64,000 nucleotides of DNA from Eubacterium sp. (lineage in GTDB: Bacteria; Bacillota; Clostridia; Lachnospirales; Lachnospiraceae), in NCBI GenBank assembly GCA_017514785.1, contig JAFWIO010000055.1:18311-82310 (forward strand), read 5' to 3'. The position numbers and the translations under genes were made by a program. Of this stretch, positions 1 to 18,024 are shown piece after piece. Positions within the stretch are counted from its first letter, which is position 1. Each line of letters begins with the position of its first letter. Below the pieces are notes generated by a model, which worked only from the letters and a program-made list of their open reading frames with translations, was not told the DNA's origin and did no database searches.

Positions 1-201
1 TTCTTTATCCACATCGTAGTCTTCTACTATCTGATCTATAATCTCTTCTTCTGACTTTCCAGCTGCCACACCTTCCCAGATGTCCTTTCCAGTGTCGTTT
101 AGTTTAATCATCCCAGAAAAACTTTCGCTAGCTTCGCCCGTAGCCACTACTACGCACTGTCCCATTATATCTCTTACTACAAAACCGTCTTTAATCTTCA
201 T
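1..201 (-). CDS. PqqD family protein / RiPP recognition element (5' part; runs off window edge)
   Basis: Not in ORF track. Manual translation from ATG at 201: MKIKDGFVVRDIMGQCVVVATGEASESFSGMIKLNDTGKDIWEGVAAGKSEEEIIDQIVEDYDVDKE..., the typical stand-alone PqqD pattern (LNxTG..IW, I...YDV). Start overlaps the stop of the upstream kinase-like gene. Confidence 0.85.
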   Translation of the reverse strand, partial: MKIKDGFVVRDIMGQCVVVATGEASESFSGMIKLNDTGKDIWEGVAAGKSEEEIIDQIVEDYDVDKE

Positions 202-943
202 TCTTACTATTCTCCCAATCTTCTCCAGTCAACTGTTCAAAACTACACTTAGCAGCATCTTCCGAAATATCGCATTTCAACTTATAAAACGGAACTGCCT
301 CTGCCATCTTCTTAAACAGGTCAACCACCTTAATCAAATAGTCCGGCTCATCCGCCAAATAAAGTTGACTCATAAACAGCTCGATGTTCTCGCCCGGATG
401 AATGCTCTCGATAGAGTTTGACTCTGCTCTCTCTACCACGCACACCCCCGCCAAAGGAGCGCTAGTGTTAATCTGCCATCCTTCTTTGCCGCACCATGGT
501 GCTCCGTGCACATACACTTTTCCCTCTTCAAAGGAAACCTCAGGCTTATCTCCGTTTATAACACTTACCTTATCTCCTAGGAACCTCTTCCACAAAGAAA
601 TGTGTGTGGACTTTCCAGTTCCACTAGGCGCCGTAAAGATATAAGCCTTTCCTTCGTATTCGATAGTTGCTCCGTGCATTAGAAGCATACCGTGGTTTGG
701 AAGATCTGTCGCAATCTTTTCCATGATACAACAAAACTCGATGTATCCTGGATCCTTGCTAGGCAAATCCTCTTTAGTCCATCTATTAAAAACTTCATCA
801 GTATAAGAAACCTGATAAACATTATCAGATTTCTTATCTTCATCAATAATATACTCGCTAAACTTTTTCTCAAGATATGAGTATTTATATTCTATTTCAT
901 ACTGGATGCCAGCAATCTGGCATAACATCTTTTTATTATCCAT
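191..943 (-). CDS. HPr kinase-like P-loop protein (type found in lasso/PqqD clusters)
   Basis: LLMHGATI...IFTAPSGTGKSTH Walker A, INGDKP and HGAPWCGKEG motifs; 250 aa. Confidence 0.7.
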   Translation of the reverse strand: MDNKKMLCQIAGIQYEIEYKYSYLEKKFSEYIIDEDKKSDNVYQVSYTDEVFNRWTKEDLPSKDPGYIEFCCIMEKIATDLPNHGMLLMHGATIEYEGKAYIFTAPSGTGKSTHISLWKRFLGDKVSVINGDKPEVSFEEGKVYVHGAPWCGKEGWQINTSAPLAGVCVVERAESNSIESIHPGENIELFMSQLYLADEPDYLIKVVDLFKKMAEAVPFYKLKCDISEDAAKCSFEQLTGEDWENSKNED

Positions 944-1409
944 CGATTAGTGGTCCAAATCCTGGTTCATCATCTTTGTCTTTCACGTCAAAGTTTCCAC
1001 CTTTGTCGCTTTTTTTGTCACCCTTTTTACTGTCACCTTTTTTGCTACTACCTTTTTTGCTGTCACTCTTCTTTGAGCTCTTACTTGATTTGCCGTTCTT
1101 TGATGACTTGCCGTCCTTAGATGATTTATTATTATCTTTATCGTTTACCAAATCGTTAACATCATCGCCATTGCTCTTGTCAGCATTGTCCACGTTAACA
1201 TCTGATTTCTTTCCCTTTATTACTTTTCCGTTTTTATCAGTCTGAGCAGGAGCGTCTTCATTCACGCTAGTAATCACATTACCGTTCGCATCTGTCACTT
1301 CTGTTTTCTTTTCATTATTACATCCACAGCCTGCAGTTGAAAACACTAAAACAACAGTAGACACAGCTACTATCATTACTCTAATCCTACTAATCTTCTT
1401 TTTATCCAT
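936..1409 (-). CDS. Lipoprotein with K/S/D low-complexity linker and C-terminal GFGPLIDG tail
   Basis: Basic N-terminus, hydrophobic stretch, lipobox-like TAGC; stop overlaps kinase start. Confidence 0.7.
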   Translation of the reverse strand: MDKKKISRIRVMIVAVSTVVLVFSTAGCGCNNEKKTEVTDANGNVITSVNEDAPAQTDKNGKVIKGKKSDVNVDNADKSNGDDVNDLVNDKDNNKSSKDGKSSKNGKSSKSSKKSDSKKGSSKKGDSKKGDKKSDKGGNFDVKDKDDEPGFGPLIDG

Positions 1410-1462
1410 AACTAAAACCTCTCAATCAATTATAATCTACTACAATAGATTGATAAAAAATC

Positions 1463-1490
1463 AAGCACCACATACGAATATGTGATGCTT
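1463..1490 (-). terminator. Rho-independent terminator after small peptide genes
   Basis: AAGCA-c-CACATA-cgaa-TATGTG-a-TGCTT hairpin followed by a T-run on the minus strand. Confidence 0.75.
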
Positions 1491-1517
1491 GTTTATAATC
1501 TTATATCTAGTCTGTAA

Positions 1518-1658
1518 TTAGTTATTGCCAGTCAAATCGCCAATATCATCTCCGTCGCCGTTATCATAATTATCCAACTCACCACTATCTTTAAGTGTAG
1601 TGATAGAAGCGTTAATTAGAAGAATCTCAGCTTCAGGATCTTTATAAAACTTTTTCAT
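1518..1658 (-). CDS. 46-aa putative RiPP precursor-like peptide A2 (MKKFYKDPEAEILLINASITTLKDSGELDNYDNGDGDDIGDLTGNN)
   Basis: Manual translation; AAGGAG RBS upstream; YxxP leader motif, SG, acidic Gly-rich C-half; below ORF-track cutoff. Confidence 0.75.
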   Translation of the reverse strand: MKKFYKDPEAEILLINASITTLKDSGELDNYDNGDGDDIGDLTGNN

Positions 1659-1730
1659 AACTATCTCTCCTTCTTTGCAATATAGTTATCTCAAACATCA
1701 TAACTATAATAGCATACGTTTATTTTTATT

Positions 1731-1859
1731 TCAACCATCGATTAGAGGGCCAAAACCTCCACCCGGTTGAGTTTCATCATCGCCACTCTGAACATTCCAA
1801 CCACTTTTCATATTATCTATGAAATACATTTCCATTGTAGGGTCTTCATATTCTTTCAT
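1731..1859 (-). CDS. 42-aa putative RiPP precursor-like peptide A1 (MKEYEDPTMEMYFIDNMKSGWNVQSGDDETQPGGGFGPLIDG)
   Basis: Manual translation; GGAGG RBS 7 nt upstream; YxDP leader shared with A2; C-terminus matches the lipoprotein tail. Confidence 0.8.
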   Translation of the reverse strand: MKEYEDPTMEMYFIDNMKSGWNVQSGDDETQPGGGFGPLIDG

Positions 1860-1919: not shown

Positions 1920-3614
1920 TTAATTTTGTGGGTATACACCCGAAGTTCCTTCCACTGTAGTTCCATCTAATGTTACATAGAATGGTGTTACATTCCATGT
2001 TGAGCTTATATCTTTATCCATTCCTCTTACAGTGTATGTAAAGAAGTAAGTTGAATCATCACTAAATACTGTAGGTAGAACTGGTTGTCCGTCGGCATTA
2101 ATCTTTGTATATAATTTCTCAACAGACTTTGTCTTTTCTGTGATTGTAGCGTCTCCATAAGTTCCTGTGAACTTAAATCCTACTGACTGATAATCCATTG
2201 AATCCAAACTACTTAGGAAACGAACTGCTGTTCCATCCGTAGCTGTCTGGAATTTTGTTCCAAGAACTTTTTCGTCGATAAACTTAGCATAAGCATATCC
2301 TGTTGTTTCTGTATATGCTGTAGTAAATCCTGCATCTTCAAAGAATCCTGCAAATATTTTTCCTTCTTTTTCTGGATATGTACCGTGAGCCTTATACTCA
2401 GTTACATCTACCATTGGTGAATTAATATTTTTGAATATTAAGTCGTGTTTTGTTGTAGTAGCTGGTGCATAATAAATTTCTACATTTACAATTGGTTTAG
2501 CTAATGTTGATCCGTAGAATAACAATCCAGCTCCCATACAATAGAATGTGTCATTATCACCCTGAGCAACATTAGTTTCTACACCATCAATTACAACCTT
2601 AGTTGGTGCTCCCATTCCATCAGGATTAAGAACATAAACACCTGCTTCTTTTTGACCTGACCAACCTGGATCTTGATAACTTATAACTTTTGTATCAGTA
2701 GCACTCCAGTATTGTAAATCATTGCTTCCTGCAACGTTTGCCCAATGGTCTGCCTCTGTAGTTGGTTCTTCAGTAGTTGTTTCTGTTTGAGACTCAGTTT
2801 CTCCAGTAGGAGCCTCTGTTGTTTCTTCTGTTGGATCTTCTGAGCCATTTTCATTCTTAATTTGGATATATGAAGTACCAAGACCTTGAGTAATAGTTAC
2901 TTCATTTATCTTCTTTGTCATTGCTGATAAGTAAACTACAAAACCAGCGCCGTCTATAGCAGCAACACCTTCTGTATTTCCGTTTACATCAACCTTTGAA
3001 ATGCCTGCAGGAACTGTAATATATACACCATCTTCTGCAGCCCAACCTGGTTTCTGAATGTTTACAACACTACTAATATTTTGCTTTGTATTATTATTGT
3101 AATACCACTGTGTTCCGCCGTTAGGAATTGATTTCCATGGACTAGCTGTAGTAGGTTCTGTTGTAGGTGCACTAGGGTCTACTGTAGTAGTAGGTCCTTC
3201 TTCACCATCTTCAAAGTAAACATAGCATGTAGTTGATCCACCTGCCCATGATACTGTAAACTCTGTTACCTTTTGAGTGAAGTTAGATAAATAAATACAT
3301 GCTCCAGCTCCCTGAACTGCATAACCAGCAAGATCCATCTGGATATCAGCAGCTGGGAAACCTATGTAAATACCGTCTTCTTCAGAAAAACCTGGATGCT
3401 GAATATTTACAGCTTGTGTTCCATTTTCTGCATAAAACTTATACTTATTAGTATAAGTTCCACCGCCTGCGCCATCGCCCAAGTAGTCGATAGTACTCCA
3501 ATCTGGTGCATCAGCTTTAGTGTCAGCAGATGGAACAAATACAAGTCCCGCAACTACCATTGCTATAGAGCAAGCAACCGCAATAATCTGCTTTGAAAAT
3601 CTTGATAATTTCAT
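1920..3614 (-). CDS. Secreted protein with three copies of an uncharacterised repeat domain and a conserved C-terminal domain
   Basis: Signal peptide; repeats VNIQHPGF..EDGIY / VNIQKPGW..EDGVY / ISYQDPGW..EAGVY with GAG; T/E/P-rich linkers. Confidence 0.75.
   Translation of the reverse strand: MKLSRFSKQIIAVACSIAMVVAGLVFVPSADTKADAPDWSTIDYLGDGAGGGTYTNKYKFYAENGTQAVNIQHPGFSEEDGIYIGFPAADIQMDLAGYAVQGAGACIYLSNFTQKVTEFTVSWAGGSTTCYVYFEDGEEGPTTTVDPSAPTTEPTTASPWKSIPNGGTQWYYNNNTKQNISSVVNIQKPGWAAEDGVYITVPAGISKVDVNGNTEGVAAIDGAGFVVYLSAMTKKINEVTITQGLGTSYIQIKNENGSEDPTEETTEAPTGETESQTETTTEEPTTEADHWANVAGSNDLQYWSATDTKVISYQDPGWSGQKEAGVYVLNPDGMGAPTKVVIDGVETNVAQGDNDTFYCMGAGLLFYGSTLAKPIVNVEIYYAPATTTKHDLIFKNINSPMVDVTEYKAHGTYPEKEGKIFAGFFEDAGFTTAYTETTGYAYAKFIDEKVLGTKFQTATDGTAVRFLSSLDSMDYQSVGFKFTGTYGDATITEKTKSVEKLYTKINADGQPVLPTVFSDDSTYFFTYTVRGMDKDISSTWNVTPFYVTLDGTTVEGTSGVYPQN
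1928..2309. repeat. Near-identical DNA copy 1 of the C-terminal domain coding region (copy 2 at about 6107-6488)
   Basis: Long exact runs shared at offset 4179, e.g. gtgggtatacacccgaagttccttccactgtagttccatctaatgttac. Confidence 0.9.
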
Positions 3615-3827
3615 TTTAAGTTTCCTCCTTAATATGTGTAGAAATCCATATAATTACAGTTTCTCAAACTAATTACTATTTTAGTAAAAAACAAGTGTAT
3701 ATTAAAGTGTTTTTTTTGGAAAGGGTGTCTTAATTTTACTCTATATTCTGCATTATCAATATTGTATCAACATACCATCATATTTGCGAAAACACTTCGA
3801 AAACCTAACACCTGTTTCTTCTATATA

Positions 3828-3856
3828 AAAAGACCGGTGCGCTAGCACCGATCTTT
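3828..3856 (-). terminator. Rho-independent terminator
   Basis: AAAGA-c-CGGTGC-gcta-GCACCG-a-TCTTT hairpin just downstream of 3879..5990. Confidence 0.7.
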
Positions 3857-3878
3857 CTTCTATATAATATAGTTCAAT

Positions 3879-5990
3879 TTATTCCGGGACTACGTCAAAG
3901 GTAGCAGTCTTTCCTGTCACTTTAGTGCCGTCTGCCGTCACATAGAATGGTGTTACATTCCAATTAGATGGAGTCGTTCCGTCCATATTTCTAATTGTGT
4001 ATGTGACAAAGTATGCTGAATCATTGTTATCGAAAGCTGTGTTTGGTCTGATTGTCACGCCGTCAGCCGTAATCCTTCGATAAACAGTTTCAATGCTCTT
4101 CGACTTGGAATCAATAGTACTTTCCCCATACGTTCCGGAGAAATCAAAGCCTGCCGATTCAAAATCTTGTAGTCTTCTACTAATAGTACTTACAAAGCGA
4201 ATAGCAGTATTATCTTCCTTCTTCTGCATCTTAACCGTCAACGCTTTCTCGTCAATAAACTTAGGGTATGCATATCCATCCTCGTCCATATATGATTCAG
4301 TAAGTGTTTCGTCTGTAAACCAACCGGCAAAGATTTTGCCTTCCATGGTTGGATATTGCCAAGGCCAAACCCACTTGTAGTCTCTTATGTTATAGTAGCC
4401 TTCTGCTTTTTCGCCGAAGACGGCTATTTCTAATGGTTGAATTCCATCGCGCTCTGAATTTTCACTCCATTCTTCAACCTCAATCTTTATATATCTCGCC
4501 TTAACATTAAGGTCCTTGGTTACTGCAGATACAGCCTTGTTATCCCACAAACCTCTAACTGAAGCTACGGGTTCGTCTCCGTACCAATCTGGTATTCTGC
4601 CTGCGTAAATATCGTAGTCAACGGCGTTGGCGTTGGACCAGCAAACCATTACATCTTCTATGTTGTAGTAGTCCTTCAAATCTATTGCAAACCATGAGTT
4701 ATCAGTTGGTTTGTTCGCTCTCCATCCCGTGTTAAGATTTCCATCGCAAAATCTTCTCGCTTGTCCTTCATTATTATAACGTGCAACAATAGGTGTTTTC
4801 TTGTAGGCAAGGTTTTCTGTTGTATTAACTTTGTTTAAGTAATCCACTATTCCGACATAATTGGAATCGTCATAAACAGCCATCTCACGCAATGAGTAGC
4901 CTTCCGGCAAATGACTTTCTGTCATTTCTATTTTAATGTACCTAGTGCTAATTGATTCACCAAGCACTATCATGTCTCTTCTGTTGTCATAGAATGAATC
5001 GTTATCAACTGTAGCCACCGGCTGGAATTCATTACCATAAGTAGAAACCATTACTGTGTATGCTTTAGCAGTATTATCTTCTGCCCATCTACAATCAATT
5101 TCTTTAACTGTCTTTACTTCACCCAAGTCCACAGTAATCCACTGTGTATCATCTCCACTGGCATTCCAAATAGTATTTGGATCAGCATCTATAACATATG
5201 ATGCATCATCCGCCGAAGCTGCAGCTGTCACTCCTTCTACGGTTGCGCCTTGTTGTGTAACTAGGTTTACGCCATTATCATTTGAATCCGGAAACTCCTC
5301 GTAATATGAAACATAACTGTATTTGTAATTATTAGGATTCACCTCTGGCTCTGTAGTTGGCTCTTCAGTAGGTGCTTCAGTTGGAGCCTCTGTTGGTGCT
5401 TCTGTGGTCTCCTCTGTTGGAGGAACTGCTGTAGTGACATTCTCTTCATATTTTGTGTAGTAGTAAGCGCCATCTGACACCTGAACATATCTCTTAGGGC
5501 TCTCGTAATACTGCGCAGGTGTATCATCCGTTAGCACTTTGTATTGTATCGAAAACTGAACATCTCCATCTAATTTGAATCTGAAAACATTGGTGAACTG
5601 ATCCTTCTGTTCGAAAGCATTCTCATGATTCATGACAGAGTCCGTAACATCAATCCAATAGCTTCCGCTCTTCTTTTCCATGGATGTAACGTTATCAAGA
5701 GTACTACCATTAATTCCAACGACCTCTAGCATTTCCTTTCCGTCGTGCAACTGGCCATTTTCACCATCAATATGTACATCTGTCTTTATGTATAAGTAGC
5801 CGCCTGATAATTCGCCACTATTATTAAGCTGACTTCCAACGGCATAGCTACCATTCTCCTGCGCCAAATACAATGCTGCCGCTCCCGGAATGTCTGCACC
5901 ACCCGGATTCCAAATATCACCATAACTAGGCACAATAAAAACAGCGACTAATGCCATGATAGTTATCATTGTTATTAATCGTTTTTTCAT
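3879..5990 (-). CDS. Secreted protein with two F5/8 type C (discoidin/CBM32-like) domains and the shared C-terminal domain
   Basis: Signal peptide; DADPNTIWNA..QWITVDLG..RYIKI and DGNLNTGW..WFAIDL..RYIKI motifs; TEAP repeats. Confidence 0.8.
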   Translation of the reverse strand: MKKRLITMITIMALVAVFIVPSYGDIWNPGGADIPGAAALYLAQENGSYAVGSQLNNSGELSGGYLYIKTDVHIDGENGQLHDGKEMLEVVGINGSTLDNVTSMEKKSGSYWIDVTDSVMNHENAFEQKDQFTNVFRFKLDGDVQFSIQYKVLTDDTPAQYYESPKRYVQVSDGAYYYTKYEENVTTAVPPTEETTEAPTEAPTEAPTEEPTTEPEVNPNNYKYSYVSYYEEFPDSNDNGVNLVTQQGATVEGVTAAASADDASYVIDADPNTIWNASGDDTQWITVDLGEVKTVKEIDCRWAEDNTAKAYTVMVSTYGNEFQPVATVDNDSFYDNRRDMIVLGESISTRYIKIEMTESHLPEGYSLREMAVYDDSNYVGIVDYLNKVNTTENLAYKKTPIVARYNNEGQARRFCDGNLNTGWRANKPTDNSWFAIDLKDYYNIEDVMVCWSNANAVDYDIYAGRIPDWYGDEPVASVRGLWDNKAVSAVTKDLNVKARYIKIEVEEWSENSERDGIQPLEIAVFGEKAEGYYNIRDYKWVWPWQYPTMEGKIFAGWFTDETLTESYMDEDGYAYPKFIDEKALTVKMQKKEDNTAIRFVSTISRRLQDFESAGFDFSGTYGESTIDSKSKSIETVYRRITADGVTIRPNTAFDNNDSAYFVTYTIRNMDGTTPSNWNVTPFYVTADGTKVTGKTATFDVVPE

Positions 5991-6029
5991 CTCCGACCTC
6001 CTCGTCTACCTATAATTATATAACAACAC

Positions 6030-6064
6030 AAAAAAGACTGCCACATTTTTGTGGCAGCCTTTTT
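6030..6064 (-). terminator. Rho-independent terminator
   Basis: AAAAG-a-CTGCCACA-tttt-TGTGGCAG-c-CTTTT. Confidence 0.75.
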
Positions 6065-6098
6065 ATCTTTCTATGTTGCTATCACAACATTACCTTTA

Positions 6099-8726
6099 TT
6101 AGTCTTGTGGGTATACACCCGAAGTTCCTTCCACTGTAGTTCCATCTAATGTTACGTAGAATGGTGTTACATTCCAATCTGAATTTGTATCAGGATCCAT
6201 TCCTCTTACAGTGTATGTGAAGAAGTAAGTTGAATCATCACTAAATTCTGTAGGGAAAACATCTTTTCCGCCGGCATTAATCTTTGTATATAATTTCTCA
6301 ACAGACTTTGTCTTTTCTGTGATTACAGCATCTCCATAATGTCCTGTGAACTTAAATCCTGCTGACTGATAATCCATTGAATCCAAACTACTTAGGAAAC
6401 GAACCGCTGTTCCATCAAGAGCTTCCTGGAACTTTGTTCCAAGAACATCTTCGTCAATGAATTTAGCATAAGCATATCCTGTTGTTTCCATATAAGGTGT
6501 TGTGCATGCTGAATCCTCGAACCATCCTGCAAAGATCTTTCCAGCCTTTGTTGGAGCTGTAGCAGGTGTAGTTGCCTTGTATGGTGTTACATCCATATAT
6601 TCTGGAAGTTCCTGTCCATCATATACAGCCATTTCGAAAATTGAGTGGCCCCAGTTAGTTGTTCTAGCTGTATCATAAATACGTACATATCTACCACTTA
6701 CTGTATTTGCAAGAACAATAGTATCTCTTCTGTTTGCGCCTGAAGCTGCGCCGTTTACAATACCTACTGTCTTAAAGTTTGTTCCGTCTGTTGAAACTTG
6801 AACTTTGAAGTCTTTTGCACTAGCAGTCTCCCACCAAGCATCAACTTCCTTAATTGTCTTAACTGCGCCAAGGTCTACGCATAGCCACTGTGGGTCACTT
6901 GCTGAAGCTTCCCAACGTGTTCCAGGTTTGTAGTCAATAGCATTGGTAGCATTTCCATTTGAAGCTGTTGCTGTTACACCCGAAATTGTAGCACCGTTTC
7001 TTGTGATAAGGTTGAAGCCATTCTCATTTGTGTCATCATACACGCCTGTGCCTGTATCTGAACTGTATGTGAATCCATCTGATACTGCCACGTCTGCAAC
7101 AGTAAGTCCAGTTGATAGGAATCCATCTTTGTATGATTTAACTGTAACATCATATGAGCCTGCTTCCACGCCGTCTAATCTATAGTCTCCTCCAGTCAAG
7201 CCTTCTGCTGCCAAGTCTCCGTCCAAATATACATTCCATGTATATCCGTCTTCGACCTGACCTGTGTCTGGAGTGATTGTTCCTGTGATTTCGTTGTAGT
7301 CGTCTGATTCAGCTGTGAATCCTGCTGGATCGTCCACAGTTTCTACTGGAGCAAGTTCTGCGTCTCCATCTATATCATAAACACCAAACTCTGTAATCTG
7401 TGCACCATATGCAACTGCGTTAGGGAAATATACTCTAACGTATCTAACCGCGCCAGATGAAAGATTTGAAACATCACCTGTAATCAAGAATGGATTAGTT
7501 TGTGATCCTTTTTGTGCTGAGAACTCTGATTGTGTCAAAGTAGCAACATCTGTAAAGTCAACTCCGTCTGTAGAATACTGGAACTTCATTCCACCATTTT
7601 CTGGATAAGTTCCACCTACATTAGATCTAAACCAAACTGCTAGTGTTTCAAAACTTGACGCTTTCCATGTATCAACTAAATCGATTGTGAACCATGAACC
7701 AGCTTGTCCTTTTGTAGCTGTTGAATATGCGCTGCTTGAAATCACGCCGTCTGTAACACTACCGTTTCCTTCTGTTGAAGAACCACTGTCCATTGTAAAT
7801 GTCTTTTGATATCCATAATTCCAAGTAGGATCTGTTACCTTTGTCGCATACGTATTAACTGTAACCTGATTTGAGTTAATACCAGGAGAAATTGCTCCGT
7901 TGTAATGTGACTGAACAAATACTGTGTGGTCTCCGCCAACTACATCATATGTGTAATCAACGCCTGCCTGACAAGTTGCATTCAACAACTGTCCATTAGG
8001 ACTATCTAAGTTTGCAGAATATACATAACCTTCTTGGTCTTCTCCTGCTGTAATGTTAAATGTAATCTGTCCTAGATCATTTGATGAAGCCGTAACTGCT
8101 GCTGGATCAGCACACGTCTCAACAGGTGCCAACTCTGGATCTTCAGCCAAAACTGCAATCTCAGTTAACTGAATTCCGTATGTTGGAACTGTTGGATAAT
8201 CAATCTTGATATATCTAACTCTTCCCGTGTAACTTGAAACATCATTTACTGTTGCTTTGCTATCTTCCAAATCAGCTGCTGCCATTGTTCCTGATGTGTA
8301 TACAGTATCCCAATTAACCAAATCATCTGAATACTGGATGTTGTATGTTCTGCCTACTACTGTATCATTGTCAGCATAATCTTTATAAGCACAAACAATC
8401 TCATCTAGAGACTCAGACTTATAAATGTTTCCTAAATCCAAAATAGCATAAGCTTCTCCACTGTAGCCCCATCCTGATGACATGGCACAGGCTCCACTGA
8501 AGTTACCATTTGTAAGGTTAACTTTATTACCTTCTGCTACTCCAGGATAAACTGTTGCTGCACTGTTAAGTACCATGTTCGTCATAGTACCGTTACCTGC
8601 AATACTGTCAATCTCATCTTGAGAAAGTGTAGCCGCATCTACCTTTGCAGCGCTAAACATAAACCCTGAGAATACCATAGATAAACTCAATGCTATCGCT
8701 AGAGTTCTTCTAATAATTTTCTTCAT
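6099..8726 (-). CDS. Secreted protein with about three F5/8 type C-like domains, FN3-like spacers and the shared C-terminal domain
   Basis: Signal peptide; AILDLG..RYIKID, WFTIDL..RYVRVY, TRWEAS..QWLCVDLG..GRYVRIY motifs. Confidence 0.8.
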   Translation of the reverse strand: MKKIIRRTLAIALSLSMVFSGFMFSAAKVDAATLSQDEIDSIAGNGTMTNMVLNSAATVYPGVAEGNKVNLTNGNFSGACAMSSGWGYSGEAYAILDLGNIYKSESLDEIVCAYKDYADNDTVVGRTYNIQYSDDLVNWDTVYTSGTMAAADLEDSKATVNDVSSYTGRVRYIKIDYPTVPTYGIQLTEIAVLAEDPELAPVETCADPAAVTASSNDLGQITFNITAGEDQEGYVYSANLDSPNGQLLNATCQAGVDYTYDVVGGDHTVFVQSHYNGAISPGINSNQVTVNTYATKVTDPTWNYGYQKTFTMDSGSSTEGNGSVTDGVISSSAYSTATKGQAGSWFTIDLVDTWKASSFETLAVWFRSNVGGTYPENGGMKFQYSTDGVDFTDVATLTQSEFSAQKGSQTNPFLITGDVSNLSSGAVRYVRVYFPNAVAYGAQITEFGVYDIDGDAELAPVETVDDPAGFTAESDDYNEITGTITPDTGQVEDGYTWNVYLDGDLAAEGLTGGDYRLDGVEAGSYDVTVKSYKDGFLSTGLTVADVAVSDGFTYSSDTGTGVYDDTNENGFNLITRNGATISGVTATASNGNATNAIDYKPGTRWEASASDPQWLCVDLGAVKTIKEVDAWWETASAKDFKVQVSTDGTNFKTVGIVNGAASGANRRDTIVLANTVSGRYVRIYDTARTTNWGHSIFEMAVYDGQELPEYMDVTPYKATTPATAPTKAGKIFAGWFEDSACTTPYMETTGYAYAKFIDEDVLGTKFQEALDGTAVRFLSSLDSMDYQSAGFKFTGHYGDAVITEKTKSVEKLYTKINAGGKDVFPTEFSDDSTYFFTYTVRGMDPDTNSDWNVTPFYVTLDGTTVEGTSGVYPQD
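6107..6488. repeat. Near-identical DNA copy 2 of the C-terminal domain coding region
   Basis: Matches 1928-2309. Confidence 0.9.
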
Positions 8727-8969: not shown

Positions 8970-10241
8970 CTAATCAATTTTAAGTCCTTTGAGCAGTTCC
9001 TTCTTATAATTGCTTTTGTCCATATCACTCTTTAGCGACTTGATTGGATTCTTCCTGCCGAGGCCCTTTCTTGCATATCTACCCGTCTGGTACGCCCACG
9101 CCAAAGGCCTTAGCGCCTTGTGCTTTCTGGCTGCCTCCCAGTGAGTGAGTCCAAGCCTCTGGAGCGATCCAATCATTGTGAAAACATTTTTGTTTCTATA
9201 TAATACGCCTGCGCCTTCGTCGGCGGCGGTTTGCTTTGCACCGAAGTTGCCGGATGCTAAGATTTGTTCCATCCACGCGGTAGCCAGTTTGGCAATTTCA
9301 TTTTGCTCTTGCTCTGCTGCTTCACGCAATGTGGTGGCTGGTGTAGTTCCTTTGCACCAGGCGATGCTTTTATCTAGGCCAAGGTGCATTTGACCCATGC
9401 GCGCGAAAACGATGGCCGCATCCTTTAGGCTGACCTCATCCAAGTACTGCTCGTAAGTCTCTTGCCAAGCGCGGTCGTCCACATGCTTTTCCACAAACTG
9501 CATCCAATCGATCACATGGCGAAGCCCCACGCCCTTCGACTGCCCAGTATGCTGAATGATATGGCGAAGAATTATAAGGCCGTTCAGTTTCTCCTCAAAC
9601 ATCGGGAACTCGTACTCGCCCACCTGGCCGGTCTCGATGTGATCCATTCCTTCTTGGATAAGCGCCTCAATCTTTGCGTCTGTCTCCTTGCCCTGCACGG
9701 TGTCGGACATACGTCTGTGAAGTTCAAACGTCACCCCGTTCTTCTTAAGCTCCACGTGATGATACTTCTCATCCTCCAGGTGCATCTGCCCCTTTGACGC
9801 GTCCGCTGCAAAGTCATATCCATTCTCCCTAAGGAGTTCATATGTTTTATCGAAGTCTTGGGCGCGGACGAAAAAGTCCACGTCGCCCATCGAACGGTAG
9901 TCGGGCTTTGGATAATTCATGGCCGCCGCACTACCCTTTATGATGGCAACCGGAATATCGTTGTCCTGTAGAAGCTTTACGAGTTTAGTCTGCGCTTCCA
10001 TAAGTTTGGTCCACTCCGCCACTTGGCTGTAAACCATCACCGTCCACTCCTGCTTTAGTTCCTCTAGCGCATCAACATTTTTCACCATATACTCGAGCGG
10101 TATACCTAAAATAGACTGGTCAGATAATTCTTCAAAAACCTGATCCCAGTCTATGTTTTCTGGCAGTTTAAACTCTGCACCACTACTCTGGTGCAAAGAT
10201 AAGTTTATTAATTTGAAAATTGTGGTTTGTAGGTTATTCAT
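8970..10241 (-). CDS. Nucleotidyltransferase family protein (NTP_transf_5-like, lasso/PqqD-cluster type)
   Basis: IIKGSAAAMNYPKPDYRSMGDVDFFV motif, FELH, GLRHVIDW. Confidence 0.85.
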   Translation of the reverse strand: MNNLQTTIFKLINLSLHQSSGAEFKLPENIDWDQVFEELSDQSILGIPLEYMVKNVDALEELKQEWTVMVYSQVAEWTKLMEAQTKLVKLLQDNDIPVAIIKGSAAAMNYPKPDYRSMGDVDFFVRAQDFDKTYELLRENGYDFAADASKGQMHLEDEKYHHVELKKNGVTFELHRRMSDTVQGKETDAKIEALIQEGMDHIETGQVGEYEFPMFEEKLNGLIILRHIIQHTGQSKGVGLRHVIDWMQFVEKHVDDRAWQETYEQYLDEVSLKDAAIVFARMGQMHLGLDKSIAWCKGTTPATTLREAAEQEQNEIAKLATAWMEQILASGNFGAKQTAADEGAGVLYRNKNVFTMIGSLQRLGLTHWEAARKHKALRPLAWAYQTGRYARKGLGRKNPIKSLKSDMDKSNYKKELLKGLKID

Positions 10242-10788
10242 TACTATGATTTCTTTTTTTCAGTTTTATCTCATTAGATTTGTTTCCATGTTTCTTAAAT
10301 GCGTTTTTAGGCAACTTATTCCAAAACTTTTTAAAATCAAACTTACACATTTCCAAGCGAGCGGGTAGATTGTTGCATTTTAATAAGTCCGACTTATAAT
10401 TAGTATTGGTTTTGCTCCTTGTTAGTTCTTTTACTTCTTTAATCTGACACGCTCTAACCAATTCATCTTCCAAATTTTCAACCTGCGGAATACACACCAC
10501 TTTTTTTACATTCTTTTTTGATTCAAGATACTCTATATTCCACTTCAAACATGGCTCTCCTTCTGAACCTCTGTCAGTGTCATAAACAAGTATTACTATC
10601 GTATTGCTTTTTATTCCTCTTGCTCGCATATTACTAAAATGCTCTTGGGTAACATTGAAAACTTCAACTTTACCATGTTGGATAAACTTAAAATCCTTTT
10701 TCAGAACATCTATTATTTTTTTATCACCTTCGCCTTCTACATAATACCTATAAATATTATTTCTACTCACTGTTATTCCCCCCCTCAC
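10234..10788 (-). CDS. RloB/TOPRIM-like protein, partner of the upstream ATPase
   Basis: YVEGEGD at the N-terminus and VYDTD (TOPRIM-like E...DxD); 4-nt overlap with the ATPase stop. Confidence 0.5.
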   Translation of the reverse strand: MRGGITVSRNNIYRYYVEGEGDKKIIDVLKKDFKFIQHGKVEVFNVTQEHFSNMRARGIKSNTIVILVYDTDRGSEGEPCLKWNIEYLESKKNVKKVVCIPQVENLEDELVRACQIKEVKELTRSKTNTNYKSDLLKCNNLPARLEMCKFDFKKFWNKLPKNAFKKHGNKSNEIKLKKRNHSNE

Positions 10789-11882
10789 TTCGCAATGTCT
10801 GCTATATCATATATTTTTTCGACATTAGGTGATGTTGAAAAGACATCATTATCCAATGCATTTCTAATTGAATCAGTATTCTTTTTTAGATAATCTGATG
10901 CATTTACATATTCAATTTTATTCGCTCCATCTTTATCTTTTTTCAAAAAACAAAAGGAATGATTAGGCAAATCCATTTCAGCCACATCAGAATTATGTGT
11001 AGTAAAGAATAACTGTCCACGTTCTGATAATTTTTCAATCATTAAAGATAAACATGCAATTTCAATATCTGAATTAACATACGTAAATAGTTCATCACAG
11101 TAGTAAAAATTATGCATTCCACATATCATAGATGCTATTGAATATGCAATCTTAAATCCCATTTTTGTACCGCTTGAAAAAATCTTTTCCCCCTTAACAT
11201 CACCATCTTGTATCAAGACAGAGTGATTATTAAGCTTTATTAAGTAAGTGTTTTCAACGTCCATAACTTTATGTACTGATTTAACAGCTGGATCCAATGT
11301 TTTCATTATTAGTCCTAGAACTTTAATATATTCTTTTTCCTCTATAGACTTTATTGAATCAACTATTCTATGCCCATATTGAAAGCACCATCCCGGAACA
11401 GGAATATCCTTATAATCTATTTCTTCTCCTTCTCCTTCATCTAATCTTTTAGCACATGTTTCGTAGTTGTCATTTTGATTGATGGAAACAAACTCCAATT
11501 TTTTATCACATATTTTTTCTTCCTTATCATCTTCTTTGTTTATTTTAGTTTTAAGAGTGAAACGATATAAACGGTTATCCCAAGCAACAAAGTCAACACA
11601 TAAATGCGCCCATTTTCTCTCATCAGTAATATGATCTGCAAATCTGTAGGCATTCCCGTCTCTCAAAAAATTTGCAAACCCCATTAATAATTCGCCTAGT
11701 GTTGTTTTGCCCGTAGCATTACTCCCCATCAAAATATTAACCTTTCTGTATCTGAAATTAGGTCTACTCTTCAAGTACTCTCCTTCTACGGGTGTATTTA
11801 CAACTTTTTTAGGGTATGACATATTCATATAAAACTTTTTGAAAGCATATAAATTATCAACTCCAATATTCATAATAATCAT
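10785..11882 (-). CDS. ABC-type AAA ATPase (AAA_21/RloA-like)
   Basis: Walker A GSNATGKTT, signature FSSGTK, Walker B YCDE, H-loop TTHN. Confidence 0.8.
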   Translation of the reverse strand: MIIMNIGVDNLYAFKKFYMNMSYPKKVVNTPVEGEYLKSRPNFRYRKVNILMGSNATGKTTLGELLMGFANFLRDGNAYRFADHITDERKWAHLCVDFVAWDNRLYRFTLKTKINKEDDKEEKICDKKLEFVSINQNDNYETCAKRLDEGEGEEIDYKDIPVPGWCFQYGHRIVDSIKSIEEKEYIKVLGLIMKTLDPAVKSVHKVMDVENTYLIKLNNHSVLIQDGDVKGEKIFSSGTKMGFKIAYSIASMICGMHNFYYCDELFTYVNSDIEIACLSLMIEKLSERGQLFFTTHNSDVAEMDLPNHSFCFLKKDKDGANKIEYVNASDYLKKNTDSIRNALDNDVFSTSPNVEKIYDIADIAK

Positions 11883-12341: not shown

Positions 12342-13463
12342 TTATTCTTCGCCCAAATACTCCATAAAGTTTTCTTTATTCTCACGCGCTGTCGTGGTAG
12401 GTCTCCCTAAATCATCTCTCGCACCGATAGCACACTTAACTTCAATAAAACTCAACTCATTCTTATCTTTAGCATCTAGCAATGCCTTATCCAAATCATC
12501 CATATTATCAACAGAACAGTAATTCGGATATCCACAGGCCTCAGCCATCTTTACCATATCTACATCCGATGCTACTGTAGGCATTCCACCAACTGTTTCA
12601 TGAGCCCCATTGTTTATTACGATATGAACCATGTTGTTTGGTTTATTTGCTCCAACCACTGCCATTGCACCGAGGTGCATAAGTGCAGATCCGTCGCCGT
12701 CCACGCACCAAACCTTTTTATCTGGTTTGTTAAACGCAACTCCTAACGCAATTGAACTAGTATGTCCCATCGAACCGACAGTTAAGAAATCATATTTATG
12801 ACTTTGACCATTGCGTTCTCTTATCTCAAAAAGTTCACGGCTTGCTTTTCCTGTGGTTGAAACGATTGGGTCTTCGCCGCTCACTTTTACAATATGCTCT
12901 ATTATCTCCTCGCGTATCAGAGAATTATCATTAGAATACTCAATCTGGCCATCATACTCTAGCGCACCTTTTCTAACAACAAATGCCACGCACTTTCCTT
13001 CATCAAGAGTTTTTCTAAAGCTACTCATAACTTCTTCTAACTCTTCATCTGTGGTATCCTTCGAAATAATAAACGAATCTATTCCCATATCATCAAGTAG
13101 CTTTACTGTTACTTCGCCTTGGTAGATGTGCTGTGGTTCATCATGAACCCCTAGTTCACCTCTCCATCCAATTACAAAAACGACCGGAATAGAATAAACC
13201 TGATCATTCAATAACGACGCTACTGGGTTAATGATATTTCCTTCGCCGCTGTTTTGCATATAAACAACAGGCACCTTTCCTGTAGCCAAATGATAGCCTG
13301 CCGCCAACGCTGTGCAGTTCCCCTCATTCGCTGCAATCACATGATGTTTTGAATCGATGCCATATGTGTTCATCAAATAGTTACATAGCTGTTTAAGCTG
13401 TGAATCCGGAACTCCTGTATAAAAGTCCGCACCTATAGTATTTACTAATGTCTCAATCTTCAT
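12342..13463 (-). CDS. aepY: Phosphonopyruvate decarboxylase
   Basis: FYTGVPDS, AANEG, YMQNSGEGN, HDEPQH, GSMG, DGDG ThDP motifs; in operon with PEP mutase. Confidence 0.93.
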   Translation of the reverse strand: MKIETLVNTIGADFYTGVPDSQLKQLCNYLMNTYGIDSKHHVIAANEGNCTALAAGYHLATGKVPVVYMQNSGEGNIINPVASLLNDQVYSIPVVFVIGWRGELGVHDEPQHIYQGEVTVKLLDDMGIDSFIISKDTTDEELEEVMSSFRKTLDEGKCVAFVVRKGALEYDGQIEYSNDNSLIREEIIEHIVKVSGEDPIVSTTGKASRELFEIRERNGQSHKYDFLTVGSMGHTSSIALGVAFNKPDKKVWCVDGDGSALMHLGAMAVVGANKPNNMVHIVINNGAHETVGGMPTVASDVDMVKMAEACGYPNYCSVDNMDDLDKALLDAKDKNELSFIEVKCAIGARDDLGRPTTTARENKENFMEYLGEE

Positions 13464-14599: not shown

Positions 14600-16609
14600 C
14601 TAGTCCTCATCAGGGATTAATCTAATAATGTCCTTGAAAGGCATACAAATATCGTCGCACTCTTTTGCTCTATGATTCTTCAAAATCATCTCCGCTGCGT
14701 TTTGCATTGCAGGGAAACCAGTTCTCGTTAACTGATTCGCATAAATCACTATATTAACTCCGCGCTCTTTAAACTCCTCTTCAGTCACAGTGTTGAAAGA
14801 AGTAGGAACTACCACTAGCGGTGTGGTTTGGTCTTTGTCGCGGAATTTTTCTACGAACTCAAAAATCTCTGCTGGGTCTTTTTGACGGCTGTGAATCATA
14901 ATGGCATCAGCGCCGGCATCCACAAACGCAAATGCTCTCTCTAGCGCATCATCCATTCCCTGCTCTAAAATCAAACTCTCAATACGCGCGCAAATCATAA
15001 AGTCCTTGGTTCTCTGTGCCTTCTTGCCTGCTTTAATCTTTTCGCAGAACTCTGGAATATCAGCCTGAGTCTGTTTAACCTCAGTTCCAAACAAAGAATT
15101 CTTCTTTAGTCCTTTTTTGTCTTCGATAATAACCATCGAAACACCCATTCGTTCTAGCGAACGAACTGTATATACAAAGTGTTCTGTTAATCCACCTGTG
15201 TCTCCGTCAAAGATTATTGGTTTAGTAGTAACCTCGCAGATATCGTCAATCGTACGGAAGCGAGATGTCATATCCACTAACTCAATATCTGGCTTGCCCT
15301 TTGCCGTAGAATCGCAAAGCGAACTAATCCACATAGCATCAAACTGACGAGCACCACCTTTTTCTTCTACAACAGTATTCTCTACGATCAAGCCTGTAAG
15401 ACCACTGTGTGCCTCCATCGCGCTGATTGTACCTTTCATAGCAAGTGCCTTCTTAAGACGCGCACGCCTAACATCAGCCGTTCCTAGTTCCGCTCTTGCT
15501 CTCTTCTCAAGTCCTTTATACTGTTCGGAAGTTGAATAAGGAAACTCAATCAACTGTCCGCCATATTTTGCTAATTCTTCAATTACTTCGTCGCGGGTGA
15601 GTTTTTGAACTCCCACTTTCCAATCATCGCCGTGCACAACAAATGCTGGTTTGTACTTCTCTAGGTTGTCTTTGTAGCTTAGAGTATCCTGCTCAACCAC
15701 TTTATGCACTCCCGCAATATTTTCAATCATTGCCTTTCGCTCGGAAAATGGAAGCAATGGGAATCTTTTATAACTAACAACTGCCTCATCCGACAATACA
15801 CCAATGACCAACTTACCAAGTCTCTTGGCCTTTTTGATAATATTAATGTGTCCACTGTGAATCATATCTGTTGAAAAGCACATATAAACCATTCTGTTCT
15901 CAACCTCTTTTAGGCTTTGTGAAACTGCAGTCAGATCATCTTGATCATCAATCTCGTTACACAATCTATCTTCCACATCTAGTGGCACTATTTCACATTT
16001 ATCCGAGACTTCATTCAACGCATTTTCCGCATAGCAATCCGTAGTTCCATCTTCACAGAACTCTACTATCTTATCTAGCCAAACTTTCCAATCAGTCTTG
16101 TTTAGTTTATATAAAGGCTGCGCGGCCATTGCGTCTTCGAAGAAGTCAATGCCCACTTTTTTAATCTTTCCATCAGATATAACTGCCTTGAAATCCTTCT
16201 CCGGCAAAGACAACGTAGAACTAACAGTCATACAACTGCTTTCGCTATTTAAAACATCTTCCAAAACAGTGTTTTCAAACACCAAATCGCCATGCATAAG
16301 AATGATGTCATCATCCAACTCATCTTTTGCACAGTATATACTATAAATATAATTTGTTTCCTTATATTTAGGATTATTCACTAACTTAATTTCAATTGGT
16401 AAATCTAGGCTCTCACAATAATTCACCAACACATCCTCGAATGGACCAGTAGTCATCACTACTTCTTTCACACCAAAATCAACCAGCTGATTAAGCTGCC
16501 TTGACAATATAGTCTCATTAGGAGACACTTCCGTCATACACTTTGGATGCTCAGAAGTTAGCACTCCCATTCTAGATCCTGTTCCTGAATTTAGTATTAA
16601 TGCTTTCAT
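14600..16609 (-). CDS. aepX: Trifunctional NTP-transferase / cytidylyltransferase / phosphoenolpyruvate mutase
   Basis: N-terminal ILNSGTGSRMG NTP-transferase; central DMIHSGH (HxGH) CyTase; C-terminal PepM with signature EDKKGLKKNS. Confidence 0.93.
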   Translation of the reverse strand: MKALILNSGTGSRMGVLTSEHPKCMTEVSPNETILSRQLNQLVDFGVKEVVMTTGPFEDVLVNYCESLDLPIEIKLVNNPKYKETNYIYSIYCAKDELDDDIILMHGDLVFENTVLEDVLNSESSCMTVSSTLSLPEKDFKAVISDGKIKKVGIDFFEDAMAAQPLYKLNKTDWKVWLDKIVEFCEDGTTDCYAENALNEVSDKCEIVPLDVEDRLCNEIDDQDDLTAVSQSLKEVENRMVYMCFSTDMIHSGHINIIKKAKRLGKLVIGVLSDEAVVSYKRFPLLPFSERKAMIENIAGVHKVVEQDTLSYKDNLEKYKPAFVVHGDDWKVGVQKLTRDEVIEELAKYGGQLIEFPYSTSEQYKGLEKRARAELGTADVRRARLKKALAMKGTISAMEAHSGLTGLIVENTVVEEKGGARQFDAMWISSLCDSTAKGKPDIELVDMTSRFRTIDDICEVTTKPIIFDGDTGGLTEHFVYTVRSLERMGVSMVIIEDKKGLKKNSLFGTEVKQTQADIPEFCEKIKAGKKAQRTKDFMICARIESLILEQGMDDALERAFAFVDAGADAIMIHSRQKDPAEIFEFVEKFRDKDQTTPLVVVPTSFNTVTEEEFKERGVNIVIYANQLTRTGFPAMQNAAEMILKNHRAKECDDICMPFKDIIRLIPDED

Positions 16610-16653: not shown

Positions 16654-18024
16654 CTATTTTATTTCCATTTCCTTCAAGTATTCCTTTGTCATAAAAACAC
16701 AAAAGTATGGAAATGTGTATATATTATTTGCAACCCCTATATTGCAATCTCCAAATTTAATACCATGCTTTATATCACTATACTTATCGCTATTTATTAA
16801 AGTTGTCAATGATTTAGATCTATCATTATTTGATTTGACTTCAACCGGTATCAATTCTTCAGTATTTCTTACAAAGAAGTCTTCCTCTAGAGTGGAATTA
16901 TCTCTCTTGTAATAATACAGACCAAGTCCCTGTTTCACAAATGCTTCTGCCACAAAGTTTTCGTACAAAGCTCCCTTGTATACGCCTAAATTTTTATTTG
17001 CTCTAAGATCTTCTTGCGACTCCTCATCTAGAGCTGAAACTAGCAGCCCAGTATCCGGATAATACAACTTATATTTAGCGTCATCAGCATTTCCCTTTAG
17101 GGGCAATTCTGGATATGCCAAACAATCACATTTTACAATCACGCCTGAATCAATCAACCATTCTATACACCCTGTATATTCACGTGATCTTGCATTGCGA
17201 CTAATCTTGCTAAATTGAAACTTCTTATTCTCTTTAGCAAGTTGCGCGGGAATACTTCTATATACACTGATAATTTTTGTCTGGTCAAGACCTTGCGCAT
17301 ATTTTCTAACATCTTCTTCATAATCTAATCTAATCTGTTCTTGTTCACTTAATGAAAAAGAGAATGTTTTGGTTGTAACAAATGTCCTTACAACATCTGG
17401 CATTCCACCCAGAACGCAGTATTCCAAAAAAAGAGTTTTATAAACATTCATTTCTGTTTCATTAAAAGGAATATTGCAAACCATATGATTAAAGATATTA
17501 CTTATATGCTCATCTGTGTAACCTCTAGCCCACAAGAACTCTTCAAAGTCCATAGAATACATTTGATAGTCTGTCTTGTTACCTACACTATTACTATGTA
17601 TTTCTTTATAATTTATTCCCAATGTAGAACCACTACAAATGACATCATAGCGTCTATCAATATTAAAAGATTTGAGCGAAGTTGCTACATCTGGATAATC
17701 TTGAATCTCATCAAAAATGATAACTGTATCATTTTCTACAAACTCCTTGGTAGGATCTGCTATCGTGATATTTTTTACTACTGTTTCAACATCATACCCA
17801 TCACTTACAATGGTTTTAAACTTCTTTTCAAGCGCAAAATTAATATAAACTACATTTCCGTAGTTATTCTTTGCAAAATGCATAATTGATTCTGTTTTTC
17901 CAATCTGTCTCGCGCCTTTAACTATTAGCGGTTTATGATTTGGATCATTTTTCCAATTATCCAAATAATCGTCAATTTTTCTCCTCAAATACATAATATC
18001 ACCTCTTAATTCGGAGTTTAACAC
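16654..18024 (-). CDS. AAA_14 ATPase with DUF4143 domain
   Basis: GARQIGKT, IFDEIQ, KLYYPDTGLL, GALYENFV, PVEVKS; likely start at MYLRRKID. Confidence 0.85.
   Translation of the reverse strand: MLNSELRGDIMYLRRKIDDYLDNWKNDPNHKPLIVKGARQIGKTESIMHFAKNNYGNVVYINFALEKKFKTIVSDGYDVETVVKNITIADPTKEFVENDTVIIFDEIQDYPDVATSLKSFNIDRRYDVICSGSTLGINYKEIHSNSVGNKTDYQMYSMDFEEFLWARGYTDEHISNIFNHMVCNIPFNETEMNVYKTLFLEYCVLGGMPDVVRTFVTTKTFSFSLSEQEQIRLDYEEDVRKYAQGLDQTKIISVYRSIPAQLAKENKKFQFSKISRNARSREYTGCIEWLIDSGVIVKCDCLAYPELPLKGNADDAKYKLYYPDTGLLVSALDEESQEDLRANKNLGVYKGALYENFVAEAFVKQGLGLYYYKRDNSTLEEDFFVRNTEELIPVEVKSNNDRSKSLTTLINSDKYSDIKHGIKFGDCNIGVANNIYTFPYFCVFMTKEYLKEMEIK

Follow-up and report, generated by a model that had tools for sequence, protein, structure and literature searches.

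A probable divergent branch of linear polyphosphorylated peptide clusters, with a two-precursor operon in a rumen Lachnospiraceae bacterium

The stretch of DNA considered here, hereafter the window, is 64,000 nucleotides long (Eubacterium sp., assembly GCA_017514785.1, contig JAFWIO010000055.1, positions 18,311 to 82,310). Its left end appears to be the 5' part of an operon from a rumen Lachnospiraceae bacterium for RiPPs (peptides made on the ribosome and modified after translation) of the linear polyphosphorylated peptide (LPP) type, that is, for linear, phosphorylated peptides made without a cyclase; we put the probability of this at about 0.75. An earlier note on this DNA had proposed a leader-directed, non-lasso system for phosphorylated or nucleotidylated acidic peptides, dependent on a RiPP recognition element (RRE). 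The sequence comparisons support such a system, and the kinase of the cluster falls into the same Pfam family as LppK, the kinase of the LPP pathway. The core idea, a cyclase-free class of phosphopeptides, has already been published as the LPPs (PMC13381572), and so it is no longer novel.

The LPPs were described in May 2026 from Bacilli and were called restricted to Bacillota (Popov et al., Nat Commun 2026, PMC13381572). In the lppA-K-B-S-D-N cluster of Paenibacillus alginolyticus DSM5050, the HprK-like kinase LppK has been shown experimentally to polyphosphorylate Ser3 of the core of the precursor LppA, a residue that sits 15-16 positions past the leader Pro; the archaeal-type, SipW-like signal peptidase LppS, which needs the RRE protein LppB, cleaves LppA after Thr-1; LppD is an MsbA-like exporter; and LppN is an NTP_transf_5 protein for which no activity was seen (PMC13381572). 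According to the same study, a Tyr versus a Trp in the leader acts as a specificity switch, the clusters are often embedded in capsule loci, and neither the final product nor its function has been established.

The cluster and its precursor peptides

All five cluster genes, namely two small open reading frames (ORFs; pep42 and pep46), a lipoprotein gene, a kinase-like gene and a PqqD gene, are on the minus strand. Their positions, ribosome-binding sites and overlaps proved to be as the earlier note had described them, and are listed below together with a hairpin and a more distant tailoring candidate:

1731-1859, minus strand: pep42, precursor peptide 1 (42 amino acids), with GGAGGA 7 nucleotides before the ATG
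1518-1658, minus strand: pep46, precursor peptide 2 (46 amino acids), with AAGGAG upstream
1462-1491, minus strand: intrinsic-terminator-like hairpin (13-bp stem and T-run) directly after pep46
936-1409, minus strand: probable lipoprotein, the "tail-twin" (157 amino acids), with a signal peptide ...FSTAGC
191-943, minus strand: ScmC/LppK-family P-loop kinase-like protein (250 amino acids), from profile matches and a fold model
1-201, minus strand: discrete PqqD-type RRE, with 67 of its 88 amino acids inside the window and the remainder past the left edge
8970-10241, minus strand: NTP_transf_5 nucleotidyltransferase-fold protein (423 amino acids; Pfam 2.8e-32), an LppN-like tailoring candidate

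The lipoprotein and kinase genes overlap by 8 nucleotides (ATGGATAA) and the kinase and PqqD genes by 11. An identical kinase is encoded on seven metagenomic contigs, which extend the view past the left edge of the window. The gene order on these longer contigs is pep42, pep46, lipoprotein, kinase, RRE, a 163-amino-acid peptidase of the S26 family that resembles signal peptidase I (SpI), a Lys-rich secreted protein of 203 amino acids, and then the ribosomal S10 operon. The earlier note had proposed looking left of the window for a peptidase, a cyclase or an exporter: the S26 peptidase is there, and no cyclase, B2 protease, radical S-adenosylmethionine (SAM) enzyme or exporter was found downstream of the RRE on the longer contigs. 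A Lys-rich secreted protein of about 200-280 amino acids follows the S26 peptidase in the window's clade (L002, 3140-3751; also L008-L012); it has weak MG2/MBG-like matches only.

The first peptide, pep42 (MKEYEDPTMEMYFIDNMKSGWNVQS25GDDETQPGGGFGPLIDG), has a YxxP leader (YEDP), the conserved Ser25 and an acidic, Gly/Pro-rich core. The second, pep46 (MKKFYKDPEAEILLINASITTLKDS25GELDNYDNGDGDDIGDLTGNN), has the leader motif YKDP and its Ser25 at the leader-core junction. Both score highly against a hidden Markov model (HMM) of the leader family (E 1.7e-18 for pep42 and 1e-17 for pep46). This HMM recovered 42 peptides in 30 loci, which have in common the leader pattern M-x(1-5)-[YF]-x-x-P-x-x-E and an alternating hydrophobic stretch; the Y/F-x-x-P-x-x-E part is present throughout the 34 distinct leader peptides. 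In the alignment, read by eye, nearly all of the leader peptides have a Ser at the junction and then a short, acidic, Cys-free core. In both window peptides Ser25 sits 17-18 residues past the leader Pro.

The kinase, the RRE and the leader peptidase

The kinase-like protein matches the NCBIfam models ScmC (4.4e-7; 29.5 bits against a 125-bit cut-off) and HprK_rel_A (1.5e-4) and carries a precomputed PF27840 assignment. So does every one of the 680 matches to its family in the protein collection, all of them labelled hypothetical, and relatives are present in at least 559 species-representative genomes. The invariant residues include the P-loop FxAxSGTGKxTHI, the motif NGDKP and most of a motif at 149-156 (PW.G.E.W). 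A PDB sequence search with the kinase profile gave nothing beyond a marginal match to phosphoenolpyruvate (PEP) carboxykinase, and placing the protein needed a fold search: the best PDB folds for its AlphaFold (AF2) model (pLDDT 94.9) are HPr kinase/phosphorylase and PEP carboxykinase (E about 3e-6, with modest TM-scores). For direct comparison we have used L088, a retrieved Paenibacillus lpp locus that also holds the lasso half and encodes an LppS with 97% identity to that of the publication. There, PF27840 is found in LppK and Hpr_kinase_C in the lasso kinase next to it. The window kinase is 24% identical to the LppK homologue over 141 amino acids (BLASTP E 8e-11), and its alignment with the lasso kinase is limited to the P-loop region (E 2e-6).

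The RRE gene, which had been predicted to start at position 201, is indeed a PqqD gene: Pfam PqqD matches it at 1.1e-10 on the 67 amino acids in the window and at 1.9e-17 on the full 88 (L002). The full-length protein also matches lasso_PqqD_Bac (1.1e-9). Its PDB matches are TbiB1, PbaB1 (0.009) and LppB (0.24), and in pairwise comparison it scores alike against LppB (2e-6) and PbaB1 (8e-7). Neither the RRE nor the kinase has a signal peptide, and both are therefore cytoplasmic.

The 163-amino-acid peptidase just left of the window (L001-L006) matches NCBIfam sigpep_I_arch (TIGR02228) at 6.6e-6, and its motifs GVSMYP, LHRV and RGDN are those of signal peptidases of the endoplasmic reticulum/archaeal type. 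The window-clade peptidase is 27% identical to LppS, its family profile scores LppS at 5e-18, and its catalytic Ser28 (in GVSMYP) and His66 (in LHRV) align with LppS S29 and H68. In the supplement to the LPP study the "HprK kinase" group consists of matches to TIGR04249, TIGR04352 and TIGR04355, and SpI of matches to TIGR02228 (PMC13381572); the window kinase and peptidase match the models used there weakly.

Related loci

Conservation of the neighbourhood, which the earlier note had named as a check, was surveyed in 80 related loci from gut and rumen organisms, whose hosts include Lachnospiraceae, Oscillospiraceae, Acutalibacteraceae, Collinsella, Gordonibacter and a Coriobacteriaceae isolate. 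The commonest arrangement is kinase, RRE, S26 peptidase, in that order; an NTP_transf_5 protein (1.9e-43) is added in 18 of the 80 loci and an ATP-binding cassette (ABC) exporter in many. In L039 (8514-10892) and L053 (8254-10578) an ABC exporter carries the S26 domain as an N-terminal fusion, which is strong genomic evidence that the S26 protein is an export-coupled leader peptidase. Such fusions recall the peptidase-containing ABC transporters of bacteriocin export and would likewise couple cleavage to export; they differ from these in that the fused domain is an S26 serine peptidase rather than a C39 cysteine peptidase, and the window locus itself has no fusion.

Three further observations come from the survey. 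In about 13 loci (e.g., L027, 4076-5041, and L054, 4972-5931) the S26 peptidase is immediately followed by a membrane-anchored protein of about 320 amino acids without a Pfam match (clusters c8 and c16), which may be one more component so far unrecognised. Loci with the kinase alone include L022, L029, L037, L040, L047, L074-L076 and L083, and the ScmC-family kinase may also act outside RiPP clusters. Finally, L057, labelled Sodaliphilus sp., and the Collinsella loci L036 and L084 are near-identical in their genes and in peptide sequence, and the Bacteroidota label of L057 is for that reason probably a binning error.

Relation to the LPP clusters

The window cluster shares its gene set and the kinase-RRE-peptidase (K-B-S) order with the published LPP clusters. 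Common to both are also a YxxP leader of the Tyr type on the precursor, the NTP_transf_5 protein, the absence of a cyclase, and an adjoining capsule locus with Wzz and a CpsD-like ATPase. The differences are also considerable. Identities are low (24% for the kinase, 27% for the peptidase). The window cores are acidic and 17-23 amino acids long, whereas LPP cores have about 45 amino acids and are Gly/Asn/Lys-rich. The window locus has no MsbA-like exporter, and its NTP_transf_5 gene is some 7 kb away. It has two precursors and a lipoprotein that repeats both cores, whereas the Bacilli locus L088 has no such twin, and the hosts of the window's branch are gut Clostridia and Coriobacteriia, not Bacilli. 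On these comparisons, the window cluster probably represents a divergent Clostridial/Coriobacterial branch of the LPPs with its own leader, RRE and core type.

Several of our results weigh against this assignment. The NCBIfam matches of the kinase are far under the curated cut-offs, as is the TIGR02228 match of the peptidase under its own, and the window-clade peptidase has a Glu at the position of LppS Asp93. The RRE is no nearer to LppB than to the lasso B1 proteins. The window leader lacks the Px9Fx[T/A] and HQxIxFET elements of the LPP leader (YxxPxVLxHQxIxFETxxS), pep42 reading P-x9-MKS and pep46 P-x9-SIT at the Px9Fx[T/A] position, and the window leader HMM, when run on LppA, gave no match. 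The window locus is without an exporter, no ABC exporter being found between the NTP_transf_5 gene and the S10 operon, and about 20 of the 80 related loci have the kinase with neither an RRE nor an S26 peptidase within 5 kb. In addition, Supplementary Data 1 of the LPP study places a few Clostridial SpIs in clusters 4, 9 and 20 of its sequence similarity network, with RREs that begin MKIKEG(Y/F)L(V/L)REI, and these RREs were scored there as "RRE others" (LPP RRE = 0), with the precursor not determined (PMC13381572). The window-type RRE has the same N-terminal sequence as those entries; the branch had therefore been catalogued before, not characterised.

What we have observed is which genes are present, their homologies and conservation, and that RNA is present; from the homology with the Paenibacillus lpp system we infer a mechanism, its chemistry, cleavage site and export included. 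A promoter and a terminator of their own would lead to excess production of the two precursors. The discrete PqqD-type RRE would bind the N-terminal Y/FxxP-x2-E leader as a beta-strand, and the ScmC/LppK-family kinase would phosphorylate, possibly several times, the near-invariant junction Ser (Ser25). The RRE would then present the junction to the archaeal-type signal-peptidase-I homologue, which would cut off the leader, and the NTP_transf_5 protein (8970-10241) may attach a further group to the phosphate. The predicted products are short (about 17-23 amino acids), acidic, Cys-free, linear phosphopeptides, made alongside the capsule.

Copies of the core sequences on exported proteins

The lipoprotein encoded directly upstream of the kinase contains segments that resemble both cores. 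Its residues 140-157 (FDVKDKDDEPGFGPLIDG) match residues 21-42 of pep42 (E 1e-4) and its residues 73-88 match residues 28-43 of pep46 (E 1e-3), with a Lys/Ser-rich linker between the two core-like segments. The display of both core sequences, leaderless, on the cell surface implies a partner common to both forms, which would recognise the sequences whether free or tethered.

Peptide and tail vary together among the related loci. In L011 the peptide ends ...WGPLE and the lipoprotein ...WGPLEDGN; in L012 the endings are ...FGPIIG and ...FGPIIDG; and in L013 the peptide reads ...NTEPDWNDW and an anchored protein ...NTDEGYIDW. The same correspondence is found in unrelated lineages: in L028 the peptide has GWSDWWTPEF and a 353-amino-acid secreted protein has GWSDWWTPEY at its C-terminal end, and in L072 GNNMGGSDDL occurs both in the peptide and in a 263-amino-acid exported protein. 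Within each genome many of the codons of the twin copies show synonymous differences (4/8, 4/5, 5/5, 3/9 and 4/10 codons), and the protein identity of the copies has therefore been kept by selection, not by recent gene conversion. An own-locus ranking of the twin tails was confounded by the lipoprotein common to close relatives, the test being clean only for L011, with its Asp-rich core, L028 and L072.

Where the peptide has its conserved Ser, the residue in the tethered copy is Asp in the window clade and in L028, Glu in L012, Gly in L011 and Leu in L013; the Asp and Glu are suggestive of a phosphomimic, a reading that is not general across the lineages. More broadly, in about 24 of the 80 loci a membrane-anchored, low-complexity protein with an aromatic-Gly-Pro tail is encoded directly upstream of the kinase. 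In Coriobacteriia, where a small anchored protein encoded upstream of the kinase bears it, this tail reads ...GTWTGYY; a surface protein of 1120 amino acids in L019 (3005-6367) has the same tail, ending ...KKGWTGYY. A twin tail was looked for, and not found, in the Bacilli lpp locus L088. We found no description of a tail-twin exported protein in the literature that we consulted and take it to be new.

One tentative reading of these correspondences, which we hold to be possible rather than probable, is that each mature phosphopeptide is the soluble counterpart of a C-terminal tail borne by a membrane-tethered or secreted protein of the same operon. A common extracellular partner would then bind both peptide and tail, one candidate being the conserved C-terminal beta-sandwich of the large surface proteins described below. 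If this is true, the system would be a docking or competition module that links surface proteins or capsule to the membrane, or releases them, and not an antibiotic. The S26-dependent RiPP pathway might also have evolved from the tailed proteins, which would have been its ancestral signal-peptide substrates.

The tailed proteins raise the question of what the enzymes act upon. The main substrates of the kinase, RRE and peptidase might be exported proteins, namely the lipoprotein and perhaps also the large surface proteins, phosphorylated or processed at the Ser-rich linker or the tail ahead of export or in the course of it; the small leader peptides would then be regulators or competitors and not the chief products. 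Several of the approximately 24 anchored-tail loci are indeed without a detectable leader peptide, the peptidase is a homologue of signal peptidases, and neither an RRE nor a peptidase lies within 5 kb in L072, which has peptide, twin protein and kinase. We nevertheless consider this unlikely: the substrate of the homologous lpp system is a leader peptide whose cleavage is RRE-dependent (PMC13381572), a YxxP motif is absent from the twin proteins, whose signal peptides are of the Sec or lipoprotein kind, and the RRE and kinase are cytoplasmic.

Comparison with lasso and SynChlorMet clusters

The LPP assignment has also to be weighed against the lasso peptides. Like the window cluster, paeninodin-type lasso clusters (PadeK/PbaK kinase, B1 RRE and nucleotidyltransferase) have an RRE-bound [Y/W]xxP-x-[LVI] leader, an HprK-fold kinase, an NTP_transf_5 protein and acidic, Pro-rich cores. 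Apart from its Tyr or Phe in place of Trp, the window leader is more like the paeninodin lasso leader than like that of the LPPs, and its HMM gives a weak match to the PbaA lasso leader (E 4e-4). Lasso B1 proteins give slightly better scores with the RRE than LppB does, pep46 could in principle form a 7-residue ring from Gly26 to Asp32, and true lasso clusters are present in rumen Lachnospira. There is, however, very little chance that pep42 and pep46 are ordinary paeninodin-type precursors served by a cyclase and a B2 protease from elsewhere in the genome. The search for an Asn-synthetase-like macrolactam cyclase or a transglutaminase-like B2 cysteine protease in the window, on the extended contigs and among the conserved neighbours of the 80 loci found neither, and the lasso reading was rejected on this ground; in the lasso half of L088, the positive control, the cyclase is present. 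The window cluster has instead a dedicated S26 leader peptidase, exporter-fused in two of the loci, and its kinase is of the ScmC type, not Hpr_kinase_C. Its leaders have Tyr or Phe where the lasso leaders of Lachnospira and of the paeninodin type use Trp. Moreover, core positions 7-9 of pep42 are free of acidic residues for any plausible start, pep46 has no Thr(-2), and the product is predicted to be linear.

The SynChlorMet cassette (ScmC, TIGR04249) also has a ScmC-like HprK-related protein beside a PqqD homologue. It differs from the window cluster in its two PqqE-like radical SAM/SPASM enzymes, which accompany ScmC and ScmD, and the 29.5 bits of the window kinase compare with 125 bits for the equivalog cut-off of ScmC. 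A SynChlorMet or radical SAM reading was rejected because there are no radical SAM genes at the locus. Our literature search on ScmC and SynChlorMet returned nothing relevant.

Conservation and expression of the small open reading frames

Conservation of the small ORFs had likewise been proposed as a check, and it is readily seen. Both are unbroken in relatives whose kinases are 63-96% identical (pep42 is conserved in L008-L012), both are also called by metagenome gene callers, and in the four closest relatives most substitutions fall at third codon positions (33 of 52 in pep42 and 46 of 76 in pep46). Each of four independent rumen/sheep metatranscriptome assemblies has a contig over about 1507-1790, covering all of pep46 and the 3' part of pep42; as assembled contigs these attest presence only, with DNA carry-over possible. 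The RNA contigs start or end near 1488-1510, by the terminator-like hairpin, whose probable effect is to reduce read-through into the enzyme genes. Promoter-like sites lie ahead of pep46 (1734-1706) and of the lipoprotein gene. The two small ORFs are more than chance and behave as genes. The least likely account of the locus, namely that they are non-functional and the kinase/RRE/peptidase trio a decayed remnant, could appeal to RNA evidence that comes from assembled contigs only and is in no case direct evidence of translation, but it is contradicted by unbroken frames across relatives, the third-position bias, a strong ribosome-binding site on both ORFs and cores that co-vary with the lipoprotein tail.

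Neighbouring surface-protein, capsule and defence genes

The remaining features of the window that bear on the cluster lie upstream of the precursors:

1920-3614, 3879-5990 and 6099-8726, minus strand: tandem trio of genes, each for a large secreted protein (564, 703 and 875 amino acids)
12342-49667, minus strand: Wzx/Wzy-type capsule/exopolysaccharide locus, including phosphonate-synthesis genes (Pfam)

The three large secreted proteins (1920-8726) have a common C-terminal beta-sandwich domain of about 165 amino acids. This domain is present in 17 of the 80 loci, always upstream of the cluster and on the same strand, and a leader peptide was detected in 16 of those 17; the tie between these proteins and the cluster is one of association only. 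Foldseek matched the AF2 model of the domain (pLDDT 90.9) to generic FnIII/Ig-like sandwiches only (E at least 2.5e-3), and a homologue search with the beta-sandwich fragment returned 7 proteins, none of them named. Beyond these three genes, which separate it from the precursors by about 7 kb, stands the gene of the NTP_transf_5 protein, which scores E 3e-34 against an HMM of the nucleotidyltransferases from 18 related loci.

By its Pfam content, the capsule locus encodes Wzz, a CpsD-like ATPase, GT2, Wzy_C, Polysacc_synt, PEP_mutase and a thiamine pyrophosphate (TPP) enzyme. Its phosphonate genes specify a PEP mutase fused to cytidylyl/nucleotidyl-transferase domains (14600-16609, minus strand) and a TPP-dependent decarboxylase (12342-13463, minus strand), which suggests that the locus makes a phosphonate-decorated polysaccharide. 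Genes of defence type lie between the NTP_transf_5 gene and the capsule genes, at 10234-11882, 16654-18024 and 21701-23863, all on the minus strand; they comprise an AbiLi-like ATPase (PADLOC 5.4e-21), which has a small ORF as its partner, and one candidate each for PDC-S01 (5.9e-154) and PDC-S06 (4.7e-235).

Significance

If the window cluster is indeed of the LPP type, the range of these peptides would extend to a divergent branch that is very common in gut and rumen anaerobes, including the human-gut Actinomycetota Collinsella and Gordonibacter. Its precursors would be tractable, being two short peptides with one candidate acceptor Ser apiece. The co-evolving match between core and tail, taken together with the link to surface proteins and capsule, would provide a clue to the function of the LPPs that is absent from the published work (PMC13381572).

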